Positions 32,761-36,154 of a stretch of 64,000 nt of DNA are shown here, piece after piece. The translations under genes were made by a program, and so were the position numbers. Source of the stretch: Patescibacteria group bacterium (GTDB taxonomy: Bacteria > Patescibacteriota > Minisyncoccia > Moranbacterales > UBA2206); NCBI GenBank assembly GCA_022709735.1, contig JAKLIG010000004.1, positions 240-64,239 on the forward strand, in the 5' to 3' direction. Position 1 is the stretch's first letter. Every line of letters begins with the position of its first letter. The notes under the pieces were generated by a model. It did not search any database. It was not told where the DNA came from and saw only the letters and a list, made by a program, of their open reading frames with translations.

Positions 32761-32862
32761 AATTTTTAATTTTGTAATTTTTAAATAAATTCTAATTTCT
32801 AATGTTTAAAAATTTAGATTTGAGATTTATTTATAAAATTAAAAATTCAAAAATTAAAAATT
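32761..32862. repeat. 102-nt AT-rich intergenic repeat, copy 1 (between atpD stop and atpC start)
   Basis: Identical to 36053..36154 except for about 3 substitutions. Confidence 0.85.
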
Positions 32863-32873
32863 TTTCTAGAAAT

Positions 32874-34286
32874 TTATTTTTTAATCTCTGATATATTTCC
32901 TTTCATATAAAATTCTTGCTCTGGAACGCCGTCCATTTCGCCATCTAAAATCATTTTGAATCCTTTGATTGTGTCAGAAAGTTTCACATATTTTCCAGCA
33001 GTTCCCGTAAATTGTTCCGCCACGAAAAACGGTTGAGAAAGAAATTTTTGAATTTTTCTAGCGCGCGTCACTGAAACCTTGTCTTCATCTGACAATTCTT
33101 CCATGCCTAAAATCGCAATGATATCTTGGAGATCCTTATATCTTTGCAAAACTTTTTGCACGCCTCGCGCCACTTCATAATGTTCTTGGCCAACAATATT
33201 TGGATCTAAAATTGTCGAGCTGGAGTCCAACGGATCAACTGCCGGATAAATTCCAAGTTCCGTGAGCGCTCTAGCCAAAACGACAGTCGAATCCAAGTGT
33301 CCGAAAGTTGTGGCTGGCGCCGGGTCAGTGAGGTCATCGGCTGGCACATACACTGCTTGCACGGATGTGATTGAACCTTTTTGCGTAGAAGTAATTCTTT
33401 CCTGAAGCCGTCCCATTTCTTCAGCCAAAGTTGGCTGGTATCCTACCGCTGACGGAATTCTTCCAAGAAGCGCAGAAACTTCTGATCCGGCTTGCGTAAA
33501 ACGGAAAATATTATCGATAAAAAGCAAAACATCTTTTCCTTCGTCATCACGAAAATATTCTGCCATAGCCAGAGCTGATAGTGCTACTCTTTGTCTTGCT
33601 CCCGGCGGTTCATTCATTTGTCCAAAGACTAAAGCTGTTTTTTCCAAAACTCCAGATTGTTTCATTTCATGATATAGGTCATTTCCTTCGCGCGTTCTCT
33701 CGCCCACTCCAGCAAAAATAGAATATCCGCCGTGCTCCTGCGCAATGTTTCGAATGAGCTCTTGAATCACCACAGTTTTTCCTACTCCCGCTCCGCCGAA
33801 AAGTCCAACCTTTCCGCCTTTTACGAATGGACAAATAAGATCAATGACTTTTATTCCGGTTTCCAAAATTTCCGCCTTAGTTGATTGTTCAGAAAATTTT
33901 GGCGCTTCGCGATGAATTGGATATCTCTTTTGTGCTTTTACTCCTTCATCTTTCCCGTCAATTGTTTCTCCAAGCAAATTAAACATCCGGCCTAATGTTT
34001 GTGGTCCGACCGGAACACTGATCGGTGCGCCAGTATTTTCTACTTCCATTCCGCGTCGAAGTCCGTCAGTTGAACCCATTGCAACAGCCCGCACTCGATT
34101 TCCGCCAAGATGCTGGGCAGTTTCCAAAACTAGCTTGCTAGTTTTGTCCGCCGAAGAGGCGGGCAAAATTATTTCCAACGCATCATAAATCTTCGGCAAT
34201 TCTACACCCCCGTCCGCCGATGAGGCGGAGAATTCTACATCCACGACTGGCCCGATTACTTGGCTAACTTTTCCTGTGTTTTTCAT
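32874..34286 (-). CDS. atpD: F-type ATP synthase beta subunit
   Basis: Walker A GGAGVGKT; DELSEED-like MEELSDEDK. Confidence 0.95.
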
Positions 34287-34307
34287 AAATTTAATTGAAC
34301 ATTAATT

Positions 34308-34353
34308 ATTGAATATTGATTAATAAAAAATAATTTAATAATCAATATTCAAT
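34308..34353. promoter_or_regulatory. Perfect 15-bp inverted repeat (attgaatattgatta ... taatcaatattcaat, 16-nt spacer) in the divergent atpD / small-ORF control region, abutting a minus-strand ttgact -35 box (34354..34359)
   Basis: Read directly from the sequence. Confidence 0.5.
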
Positions 34354-34365
34354 AGTCAATTTTTG

Positions 34366-34434
34366 CTTTGTTTTAGCCAAATATCCGCTGATTAGGATTT
34401 GGCATTTGACTTTTTCACAATTTTATGATATCAT
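34366..34434 (+). promoter_or_regulatory. Conserved upstream element (34366..34400, shared with 37781..37815) plus promoter for small ORF P1: -35 ttgact (34406..34411), 17-nt spacer, extended -10 TGaTATCAT (34426..34434); RBS aaaaggagagg precedes the ATG
   Basis: Identical 35-nt block ctttgttttagccaaatatccgctgattaggattt at both loci; both are followed by ttgactttt. Confidence 0.6.
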
Positions 34435-34492
34435 CCAAAGTCAACTTAACAACTCAATACAAATAAACGTCTGATGAAAAGGAGAGGCTAGA

Positions 34493-34843
34493 ATGAAAAA
34501 AAGTTATTATGTATTAACTATTATGAAGGTTCCACGTAAGGATGTTGTAGGAAGCGTAGCAAATCGTAATTTTCGGTTCGATATAATGGGAATTGATAAA
34601 TCTTCCGGAAAAATTGAACGATTTTCATTCAGTTCAGAAAGAATTGTAGCATTACAATGCAATAATTGTTCTTCCGAAGATTTCATTAGAATTTCCATTT
34701 TAAACTTCCTGCAAGACTTCGGGCTTCAAATCGTTTCCTCCGAAACGATCAAGGAAATTTGGATGGATAGGTATGAAATTTTTGTATATAAACATTTTCT
34801 CATATCTAATTCTCCTGTTTCCCTGAAAGACATTACAGAGTAG
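34493..34843 (+). CDS. Small hypothetical protein P1 (116 aa), antisense insert between atpG and atpD
   Basis: Strong promoter and SD; no recognisable domain. Confidence 0.55.
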   Translation: MKKSYYVLTIMKVPRKDVVGSVANRNFRFDIMGIDKSSGKIERFSFSSERIVALQCNNCSSEDFIRISILNFLQDFGLQIVSSETIKEIWMDRYEIFVYKHFLISNSPVSLKDITE

Positions 34844-34874
34844 ACGCTAAAAAGTTGTGCCAGCAAGTAGCTGG

Positions 34875-34917
34875 AAAAAACCACTGATTCCGAACCTTGG
34901 ATGACGTGGCTTTTTTG
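34875..34917 (+). terminator. Terminator of P1: aaaaaaccactgattccgaaccttggatgacgtggcttttttg; homologous to the P2 terminator
   Basis: Imperfect hairpin followed by a T-tract; motif ccaCTGATTcc. Confidence 0.5.
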
Positions 34918-34948
34918 TTTTCTTTTTTATAAAAGAACTCCTATTTTC

Positions 34949-35033
34949 GTCATCCTGAACGCAGTGAACCTTTTTTGAGATTCCCTGCCTGCCGGCAGGC
35001 AGGTTCGCTCTGCTCAGAATGACGATTATTATT
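34949..35033. repeat. Palindromic repeat element E2: gtcatcctgaacgcag...ctgctcagaatgac with inner gaacc/ggttc stem and the perfect CCTGCCTGCCGGCAGGCAGG core (34984..35003)
   Basis: Termini shared with E4; core shared with E1; lies between convergent P1 and atpG, so it could serve as the atpG terminator. Confidence 0.8.
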
Positions 35034-35069
35034 TTGATTTTCAATTTTCTAAAAGCTATAAGCTAAAAG

Positions 35070-36029
35070 CTAATTTTCTAACGCCGCTCTTCCTGCTGAA
35101 ATTTCCGCGATCTCCTGCGTAATCTTCATCTGCCTAATTTGATTATACGCCAGCGTGAGATCCATCGCCATTTCTTCCGACGCTTCCGTCGCATTTTTCA
35201 TTGCAATCATCTGGGCTGATTCTTTGGACGCATTGGATTCCAGAATCGCATGATAAACCTGCATTTCAATGAGACGCGGAATAATATCCTTCAAAACTTC
35301 TATCGGGCTTGGTTCTATCTTATATTCCACTATCGGTTCAGAAAGTCCGTATTCTTTGGCCAAAACATCCATCTCGGCAATTTGCTTTTCCAAATCAATT
35401 TTTGATAGTGGCAAAATTTGGCGAACTTTTGTCTGTTGATTTATCGTTGAGACATAATCCGTATAAAAAATAACAACTTTGTCATATTTTTTCGCCAGAT
35501 ATTCTTGAATGACAATTTTTCCAATCGCCCTGACATCATCAATTTTTGGCAGATATGCCAGATCATTAAACGAGGCAATAATTTCATTTCCAGCTTTTCG
35601 AATGGCAACTTCTCCTTTTTTTCCGATGGTTATAAAATCAATTGCTAAATCTTTATTAGAAATTTTGGATTCTAGTTTTTTCGTTCCGATTCGATTTATT
35701 TTTAATTTTTCTGGATTATCCAATTCTTCTTTTATCTTTCTGGCTATTTGCGAATTGAATGATCCGCAAAGTCCGCGATTAGAAGTTATCACAATTGCCA
35801 AAATTCTTTTCACCTCACGAACTTCCAAAAGCCCTTCCTGATTTTTTTCAAACGAGCGGGCTAGATTAGTCAGAATGCTCCAAGCGCTGTGAGCATACGG
35901 CCGAATTGCCAAAACAGACGCAATTGCGCGCCGCATTTTTGCCGCACTCACCATTTCCATCGCCCGCGTAATTTTCCCGGTGTTTTTGATGGACTTTATT
36001 CGCCTTCTAATTTCTTTGCCACTTGCCAT
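35070..36029 (-). CDS. atpG: F-type ATP synthase gamma subunit
   Basis: N-terminus MASGKEIRRRIKSIKNTGKITRAMEMVSAAKMRRA; C-terminus ...AEISAGRAALEN. Confidence 0.9.
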   Translation of the reverse strand: MASGKEIRRRIKSIKNTGKITRAMEMVSAAKMRRAIASVLAIRPYAHSAWSILTNLARSFEKNQEGLLEVREVKRILAIVITSNRGLCGSFNSQIARKIKEELDNPEKLKINRIGTKKLESKISNKDLAIDFITIGKKGEVAIRKAGNEIIASFNDLAYLPKIDDVRAIGKIVIQEYLAKKYDKVVIFYTDYVSTINQQTKVRQILPLSKIDLEKQIAEMDVLAKEYGLSEPIVEYKIEPSPIEVLKDIIPRLIEMQVYHAILESNASKESAQMIAMKNATEASEEMAMDLTLAYNQIRQMKITQEIAEISAGRAALEN

Positions 36030-36052
36030 AAATTAATTACCAAAAATTTTAT

Positions 36053-36154
36053 AATTTTTAATTTTGTAATTTTTAAATAAATTCTAATTTCTAATGTTTA
36101 AAAATTTAGATTTAAGTTTTATTTATAAAATTAAAAATTCAAAAATTAAAAATT
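36053..36154. repeat. 102-nt AT-rich intergenic repeat, copy 2 (between atpA stop and atpG start)
   Basis: Near-identical to 32761..32862. Confidence 0.85.

Follow-up and report, generated by a model that had tools for sequence, protein, structure and literature searches.

Why should almost the same AT-rich sequence follow both atpA and atpD within a single operon? The question is raised by a 64,000-nt stretch of contig JAKLIG010000004.1 (the window), from a Candidatus Moranbacteria (Patescibacteria) metagenome-assembled genome (MAG), which carries an F-type ATP synthase operon on its minus strand. An element of ~110 bp occupies the spacer between atpA and atpG and, again, the spacer between atpD and atpC. 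An earlier reading made from the letters alone (the sequence-only reading) had noticed this repeat and proposed that its conservation suggests a function. [quoted passage not shown]

Structure of the repeated element

A repeat scan of the 30-40 kb region identified a direct repeat of 113 nt (32753-32865 and 36045-36157), the two copies of which are 96% identical with 4 mismatches. Over the ~102 nt that the sequence-only reading had described (32761-32862 and 36053-36154), 100/102 positions are identical and the only mismatches are at 32822 and 32825. The near-identity of the copies was thus borne out, as was their location in the atpD-atpC and atpA-atpG intercistronic spacers once the genes of the operon had been assigned using Pfam (Table 1). 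The spacers that hold the element are 126-132 nt long. On the transcribed strand, the repeat begins 8-11 nt past the stop codon of atpD and 0-1 nt past that of atpA, and it ends 11-19 nt before the ATG of atpC and 15-23 nt before that of atpG. Its edges are sharp. In the 20-40 nt just outside both edges, identity between the two sites is 25-35%, which is the background for AT-rich DNA in this region.

The element is ~90% A+T and contains no open reading frame (ORF). It is an imperfect palindrome, being 79% identical over its whole length to its own reverse complement. The arms consist of tandem units of ~7 nt, AATTTTT in one arm and AAAAATT in the other, with a super-period of 15 nt; the element's own autocorrelation reaches 0.63 at lag 7, with 0.56 at lag 15. 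Small size (<~300 bp), lack of coding sequence and the presence of terminal inverted repeats (TIRs) in both copies are features that the element has in common with MITEs.

Within the window, a 32-mer and a 36-mer from the element match the two atp sites only (≤3 mismatches; 0 matches expected from shuffles), and the TIR sequence is likewise found at the two copies only. No further copy was detected in the window-wide repeat scan, in the 8.4 kb past the window end or in a scan of viral contigs. Relaxed blastn searches of the window returned, beyond the two copies, only AT-rich look-alikes of ~70% identity. A possible diverged relative of the element, another AT-rich imperfect palindrome, is located directly upstream of atpA (Table 1).

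The element is also present in an independent contig from the Joint Genome Institute (JGI; L001), and the atpA-atpG copy is where a Logan assembly contig (L002) begins or breaks. These occurrences show that the repeat did not arise as an artefact of assembly. A contig break at such a position is typical of a multi-copy repeat, and we count it in favor of recent copying.

Table 1. Positions of the element, its terminal inverted repeats and the surrounding atp genes in the window.
Feature	Position	Strand	Remarks
Copy 1 of the ~110-nt AT-rich imperfect palindrome, atpD-atpC spacer	32753-32865	-	10% G+C
Copy 1, terminal inverted-repeat arm	32761-32784	.	Pairs with 32839-32862; 24 nt, 92% complementary, arms 54 nt apart
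Copy 1, other terminal inverted-repeat arm	32839-32862	.	Partner of 32761-32784
Copy 2 of the element, atpA-atpG spacer	36045-36157	-	8% G+C; first bases abut or overlap the TAA stop of atpA
Copy 2, terminal inverted-repeat arm	36053-36076	.	Pairs with 36131-36154; 24 nt, 92% complementary
Copy 2, other terminal inverted-repeat arm	36131-36154	.	Partner of 36053-36076
Possible diverged relative: AT-rich imperfect palindrome with 51-nt arms, directly upstream of atpA	37672-37779	.	68-72% over 96-113 nt, both orientations
atpI-like	40518-40757	-	Pfam
atpB	39766-40518	-	Pfam
atpE	39451-39732	-	Pfam
atpF	38899-39384	-	Pfam
atpH	38403-38867	-	Pfam
Gap upstream of atpA	37665-38402		738 nt
atpA (F1 alpha), directly upstream of copy 2	36156-37664	-	Pfam ATP-synt_ab, ATP-synt_ab_C
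atpG (F1 gamma), directly downstream of copy 2	35070-36029	-	Pfam ATP-synt, E 4e-81
Gap upstream of atpD	34287-35069		783 nt
atpD (F1 beta), directly upstream of copy 1	32874-34286	-	Pfam ATP-synt_ab, ATP-synt_ab_N, ATP-synt_VA_C
atpC (F1 epsilon), directly downstream of copy 1	32301-32741	-	Pfam ATP-synt_DE_N; no Shine-Dalgarno site, AT-rich leader

Occurrence outside the window

When JGI metagenome contigs were scanned for the element's central 28-mer, one further locus (L083) was obtained, on the 85.6-kb contig Ga0209417_1000555. This third copy sits between the stop codon of a gene encoding a MgsA/RarA AAA+ ATPase and the start of a gene encoding a methylpurine-DNA glycosylase (mpg), and it has the same orientation relative to transcription as the atp copies. 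It is ~97% identical to each of them. At both internal positions where the atp copies disagree, the third copy has the consensus base. The three are thus related in a star-like manner, which is what copying from a single master sequence would produce. The left flanks of the three insertion sites read CTAG, CTAAG and CTAAAG, and the AT-rich ends of the element leave the exact boundaries ambiguous. The L083 locus and the window also share a 20-nt GC-rich mini-palindrome, suggesting that the locus comes from the same or a closely related genome. The sequence-only reading had regarded occurrence at many unrelated loci as an argument against function. One such locus has now been found, while the number of known copies is only three. 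The search elsewhere that it had proposed was productive in a metagenome and yielded nothing in the nearest relatives.

For the comparison with relatives, all atp junctions were measured in 80 atp loci from species-representative genomes and in four loci from the closest AtpG homologues. The closest species representatives are Moranbacteria/Moraniibacteriota MAGs with AtpG identities of ≤80%. The nearest AtpG among 5.8 billion proteins is only 84% identical, and no strain-level comparison of filled and empty sites is therefore possible. In the three nearest relatives, L086, L088 and L003 (AtpG 84%, 81% and 80% identical, respectively), the atpA-atpG spacers are 21, 20 and 14 nt and the atpD-atpC spacers are 10, 10 and 43 nt. 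No match to the element was found in any of the three. These compact, element-free junctions indicate that the element is a derived and dispensable insertion. Filled and empty sites, which are used in recognizing MITEs, are seen when the window is set against these relatives; at 80-84% identity in AtpG, the difference does not represent a strain-level polymorphism.

In other Moranbacteria, the atpA-atpG and atpD-atpC junctions contain spacers of 80-190 nt that are each different in sequence and are mostly imperfect palindromes. The presence of unrelated hairpins at the same junctions indicates rapid turnover. AT-rich palindromes with a weak resemblance to the element (73-82% identity, for which the AATTTTT/AAAAATT arms are mainly responsible) are found in L032, between atpE and atpF, as well as in L031 and L007. 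The palindrome of L032 (3790-3893, ~105 nt) shares 80-82% identity with the window element in both orientations, and its host is a distantly related Patescibacterium whose AtpG is 44% identical. This likeness could be due to a shared mobile family or to convergent expansion of the AATTTTT unit.

Ectopic gene conversion, or local homogenisation, would account for the identity of the two atp copies in another way. Diverged AT-rich hairpins made of heptamer arrays would have existed at both junctions, and would recently have been made identical with no transposition. In favor of such exchange, the copies are direct repeats 3.3 kb apart, and the regions upstream of atpA and atpD share two blocks of 76-89% identity, suggesting exchange between these neighbourhoods. 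The compact atpA-atpG spacer of L003 (GAATTTTTAAATTT) resembles both ends of the corresponding window spacer, and AATTTTT-type arrays in other spacers could supply microhomology. However, in the nearest relatives these junctions lack a hairpin that could have been there beforehand, and flanks that are 25-35% identical at the edges offer no homology to prime conversion. The third copy, moreover, is at an unrelated locus on another contig. A simple two-site conversion, which the sequence-only reading had named as the alternative to function, fails to explain either this copy or the lack of flanking homology, and we consider conversion doubtful.

The sharp edges, the terminal inverted repeats, the third site, the absence of the element from the nearest relatives and the turnover of junction hairpins instead argue for a discrete unit that has been copied. 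Copying into at least three intercistronic spacers of this Moranbacteria lineage (atpA-atpG, atpD-atpC and rarA-mpg) is supported by the sequences. The near-identity of 96-98% would then be a consequence of the recency of copying, and not of purifying selection on a regulatory sequence.

Predicted folding and transcription signals

Folding of the minus-strand transcript, which the sequence-only reading had suggested, gave one long hairpin for each of the two spacers. The spacer RNA of copy 1 forms ~47 mostly A·U pairs with an energy of -19.7 kcal/mol (z -2.2 against dinucleotide shuffles). For copy 2, the energy is -20.8 kcal/mol (z -3.3), and 0/200 shuffles were as stable. The element adopts the same fold when folded as DNA (-19.6 kcal/mol, z -2.5). 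No Rfam 15 family matched the element at E≤1 over 32000-41000, where the sole match was a chance small RNA elsewhere in the range, and at the gathering score the whole window contains tRNA-Leu only.

An AT-rich sequence with a hairpin might act as an internal promoter for atpG and atpC, or as an intrinsic terminator or attenuator after atpA and atpD. Copy 1 contains one weak promoter-like match (9/12, TTAAAA-18-TAAAAT, 32769-32740, minus strand). However, copy 2 contains none, and the number of promoter-like matches in the region, 33, is at the level of chance (26.3 ± 5.1). No terminator-like site was called at either copy. An intrinsic (Rho-independent) terminator is defined by a G+C-rich stem and a U-tract, while the stems of the element are almost entirely A·U, with almost no G·C pairs, and copy 1 is not followed by a U-tract. 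The genome uses canonical terminators with a GC-rich stem and a U-tract elsewhere, including one 3' of atpC (~32240-32290) and another at ~23620-23660. The promoter or terminator function considered in the sequence-only reading is not supported by these scans, and appears very improbable.

Being located between co-directional genes without a terminator, the element would be transcribed within the operon mRNA, where it may form a hairpin of ~47 bp, rich in A·U pairs and with a stability of about -20 kcal/mol. RNase III could cleave such a long duplex, as it does for Correia elements. Alternatively, the 3'-to-5' decay of the upstream cistron might be altered, as for repetitive extragenic palindromic (REP) sequences and ERIC. 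Any effect on the mRNA would be incidental or at most mildly exapted. By analogy with these systems, a modest and possibly incidental effect on the segmental stability of the atpA and atpD messages is plausible.

Hairpin spacers at atp and other junctions

A stronger role would be that of a cis-acting RNA under selection. On this view, the hairpin that follows atpA and atpD acts as a 3' decay barrier or processing site, so that the alpha and beta segments of the message outlast those for gamma and epsilon. Each F1 complex requires three copies of alpha and of beta, and one copy of gamma and of epsilon. In both cases, the gene upstream of the element encodes a three-copy subunit and the gene downstream a one-copy subunit. 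The element is positioned precisely between the stop and start codons at both sites and in the same orientation, and its folds are more stable than those of shuffled sequences (z -2.2 and -3.3). Furthermore, atpA and atpD are each also preceded by an AT-rich hairpin, some hairpin is present at these junctions in many Moranbacteria, and two copies within 3.3 kb exceed the random-insertion expectation. A role of this type would also resemble that of the puf operon hairpin, and the mechanism is known elsewhere from the malE-malF REP hairpin (PMC5927463).

We examined how specific such hairpins are to the catalytic-subunit junctions, using ORFs called uniformly in 38 Patescibacteria loci. Co-directional junctions were scored for spacers of 75-260 nt that form a single hairpin. 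Such spacers were found at 14/35 atpA-atpG and 9/29 atpD-atpC junctions. The remaining atp junctions gave 13/26 (atpB-atpE), 7/25 (atpE-atpF), 6/21 (atpF-atpH) and 4/20 (atpH-atpA), and non-atp junctions 27/115 (23%). No difference was seen between the catalytic-subunit junctions and the remaining atp junctions (Fisher p=0.41), and the difference from non-atp junctions is only marginal (p=0.08). Among the window spacers of ≥60 nt, 11-14/31 consist of one dominant hairpin. These hairpins are of several unrelated families, and none of the atp junctions is without one. Hairpin spacers are a general property of these genomes.

Hairpins selected in the mRNA should fold better on the sense strand because of G·U pairs. 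No such bias was observed over 33 atpA-atpG and atpD-atpC spacers (17 better, 16 worse; Wilcoxon p=0.57). The lack of strand bias fits DNA-level palindromes, and is also compatible with an RNA role since both strands can fold.

These results count against a selected cis-acting RNA in several respects. The sense strand folds no better, and hairpins are as frequent or more so at atpB-atpE and other junctions. The nearest relatives have junctions of 10-21 nt without any hairpin, and a near-identical copy is found between rarA and mpg, where the argument from 3:1 stoichiometry does not apply. In addition, the stem is nearly all A·U with many mismatches (~-0.15 kcal/mol per nt), and is weak compared to the genome's own GC-rich hairpins. 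We therefore regard this role as unlikely. The proposal that conservation of the repeat implies function is not supported, given the absence of the element from the closest relatives, the lack of junction specificity and the lack of sense-strand bias.

The junction spacers of relatives share the ~7-nt periodicity of the element's arms. Across the atpA-atpG and atpD-atpC spacers of L003-L039, the autocorrelation at lag 7 is 0.432 vs 0.305 expected (z=16), and a second signal is seen at lag 14 (z=8). Hairpin arms in these relatives are inverted arrays of locus-specific heptamers, such as AACTCAC, CTAAAGG, GAATTTA and CATAAAT. In compact spacers, plain heptamer runs come immediately before the start codon (TTTCTAA x4 before atpC of L003; CCATAAG x4 before atpH of L018). 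The atp genes of this clade are without Shine-Dalgarno (SD) sites, and their starts are preceded by AT-rich leaders of the 'AAATTT ATG' type (window, L003, L004, L018, L019 and others). In one pair of relatives, L009 and L012, identity is 97.9% in the atpA-atpG hairpin spacer but only 74-90% at third codon positions in the atp genes on either side. For the atpD-atpC spacer of the same pair, which carries a small gene of GxxExxY/PDDEXK-like type, it is 98.9%. These spacer modules are either younger than the divergence of their hosts, through horizontal spread or homing, or under strong constraint.

A broader proposal would treat hairpins of this type, built from inverted ~7-nt arrays, as interchangeable modules that punctuate the SD-less operons of Moranbacteria and of other Patescibacteria. 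Such modules would spread horizontally between genomes, in view of spacers that are 98-99% identical against 74-90% at synonymous sites, and be kept for cistron-specific mRNA processing, stability or translation initiation, with the atpA/atpD pair tuning the 3:1 ratios of alpha to gamma and of beta to epsilon. We give this proposal a small chance of being correct.

Origin and significance of the element

Several observations weigh against the element being a recently copied dispersed repeat. No consistent target-site duplication was found at the three insertion sites, also when these were compared with the empty sites of relatives. No transposase, REP-associated tyrosine transposase (RAYT) or partner insertion sequence was found among the ~50 window ORFs (Pfam) or in the existing annotation of the rest. 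The known copies number only three, which does not support a generic high-copy MITE; the JGI scan required an exact 28-mer and missed the window's own JGI contig, which makes the copy census a lower bound. The L083 contig possibly belongs to another organism than the window. The two atp copies are at analogous sites after paralogous catalytic genes, 3.3 kb apart, and are the only two in the ~72 kb of this genome that the analysis covered. This clustering is greater than expected for random insertion, and local copying or selection may contribute to it, as may an insertion preference for the AT-rich post-stop spacers of a heavily transcribed operon. Finally, the pattern seen in L009 and L012, which counts in favor of recent copying if the modules are young, could also reflect strong selection on spacers. 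With these points taken into account, recent copying of a small dispersed palindromic repeat is still the explanation that we consider probable.

Patescibacterial genomes are thought to be streamlined and poor in mobile DNA. If the element is a dispersed repeat, it documents a MITE/ERIC-like palindromic repeat family in Patescibacteria, and here even the essential atp operon would be studded with insertions. In a full-text search of the literature, no relevant account of intergenic repeats that are palindromic or MITE-like came up for this group. Such repeats break assemblies, inflate intergenic length and risk being taken for conserved regulatory elements. The wider pattern is maybe the more useful lead on the expression of SD-less operons. 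It comprises hairpins with 7-nt-periodic arms at a quarter to half of the co-directional junctions, spacers in which conservation exceeds that of synonymous sites, and modules with antisense promoters that lie upstream of both atpA and atpD. Were the hairpins to be interchangeable regulatory modules, ultra-small bacteria would have a level of operon regulation that is lineage-wide and has not been described before.

Gaps upstream of atpA and atpD

The two gaps, of 783 nt before atpD and 738 nt before atpA, have a parallel architecture, each containing a plus-strand ORF that is antisense to the operon. Both ORFs, orf116 (34493-34843, atpD gap) and orf94 (37905-38189, atpA gap), have strong Shine-Dalgarno sites of the AGGAG type. 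They are unrelated to each other. Searches of Pfam, NCBIfam, PADLOC and PHROGs gave no match for either, and among 5.8 billion proteins each has only itself as a homologue.

The antisense ORFs are flanked by shared blocks, 34358-34414 corresponding to 37773-37829 (89%) and 34897-34947 to 38227-38277 (76%). Relatives have the first block too, L088 and L004 upstream of atpD and L089 upstream of atpA. Within it are a conserved antisense promoter of the sigma-70 type (TTGACT, 17 nt, TAnnnT; AGTCAA invariant) and ~45 conserved nt upstream of this promoter. An RNA hairpin in this block was considered and rejected, as its pairing is not kept in relatives. Directly after atpH, the region 38190-38402 forms a very stable nested GC-rich hairpin structure (-88 kcal/mol over 213 nt). 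It includes a plus-strand terminator-like site (38312-38333) that would end the antisense orf94 transcript. The antisense ORFs and their shared blocks may form a unit of convergent antisense transcription, by which the operon would be split into atpBEFH, atpAG and atpDC.

Other repeats in the window

A second palindromic intergenic repeat family (GCGACTCGAAT...ATTCGAGTCGC) occurs at 13615-13708 and 29233-29324, one site following a DprA-like gene and the other preceding leuS. Over the 50 nt that they share, the copies are 90% identical, and their hairpins have energies of -33 to -36 kcal/mol. Palindromes of the form GTCATTCTGAGC...GTTCAGGATGAC or TGTCATCCCGC...GCGGGAATGACA are located at 34948-35024 (after atpG) and at further junctions of the window (42385-42450 and 56589-56676). 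The same type is seen in the atp spacers of relatives (L013, L029-L031), and it seems to be a widespread hairpin family that is richer in G+C than the AT-rich element and separate from it.

The GC-rich mini-palindrome of ~20 nt (CCTGCCTCGCCGGCAGGCGG and variants) is found at 38831-38852 (atpF-atpH spacer), 34983-35002 (center of the post-atpG hairpin), 54936-54953 and 62457-62474. At L083, an identical 20-mer of the CCTGCCTCGCCGGCAGGCGG type (915-934) lies inside the rarA/mgsA reading frame. Compared with canonical RarA, it seems to add ~7 residues (LPRRQAG) to a conserved motif. This in-frame 20-mer is reminiscent of the Rickettsia palindromic elements.

At the start of the window, the region 1-4425 is poor in ORFs, has an elevated G+C content of 0.41-0.45 and contains a 183-nt direct repeat (1978-2160 and 3250-3432, 80%). 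The small ORFs of this region have no Pfam match, and no Rfam family was found in it. Near the other end, low-complexity repeats with a period of 12-15 nt (62479-62817) are located inside a minus-strand ORF (62442-63989), where they likely encode a repetitive segment rich in Lys and Glu.

Comparison with known repeats

Tandem interspaced guide RNA (TIGR) arrays occur in Patescibacteria. They consist of tandem units with box C/box D motifs beside a gene for the Nop-domain protein Tas (PMC12045711). The element is not such an array, being a single hairpin that has no TGATGA/CTGA motif and no Tas gene, and that is flanked by atp genes.

The location of the element, as an intercistronic palindrome directly after a cistron needed in higher amount, resembles that of REP sequences and bacterial interspersed mosaic elements (BIMEs). 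In Escherichia coli, the malE-malF REP hairpin shields the upstream mRNA segment (malE) from 3' exonucleases (PMC5927463). REPs are 20-40 bp long and rich in G+C; they bear a GTAG or CGTC tag and are associated with RAYT transposases (PMC3733652). The element is not a REP by this definition: it is 110 bp long, has a G+C content of 8-10%, carries no GTAG or CGTC at its ends and has no RAYT in the window.

Heptanucleotide arrays are reported to be the most abundant class of long simple-sequence repeats in prokaryotes; in Beggiatoaceae, Cyanobacteria and Bacteroidetes, such arrays (TAACTGA repeats) are found just upstream of starts without canonical ribosome-binding sites, often at a distance of a few nt (PMC4679880). 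The loci studied here are similar in having a tandem periodicity of ~7 nt in intergenic DNA, and heptamer runs directly upstream of SD-less atp starts. They differ in that the arrays form inverted pairs that fold into hairpins, the unit varies by locus, and the window element is dispersed as a whole unit.

ERIC sequences, also known as intergenic repeat units (IRUs), are close to the element in size (~127 vs ~110 bp). Both are non-coding imperfect palindromes found in transcribed intergenic spacers and at the 3' ends of genes. ERIC copy number is variable and sometimes low, and the sequences are co-transcribed as long RNA hairpins; at gene 3' ends, they change transcript levels (PMC10969869). 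The two are not related in sequence and are from different phyla, and the window element stands apart in being ~90% A+T, with arms of ~7-nt tandem units and three known copies.

Correia elements, or NEMIS, of Neisseria have a TA target duplication, sites for integration host factor (IHF), promoters and >100 copies, none of which could be recognized for the window element. They are otherwise similar to it, as MITE-like sequences with terminal inverted repeats that are located next to or between genes and are co-transcribed. The hairpin formed by Correia TIRs is a substrate of RNase III (PMC10969869), and by analogy cleavage by this enzyme would be the most likely fate of the ~47-bp duplex predicted here.

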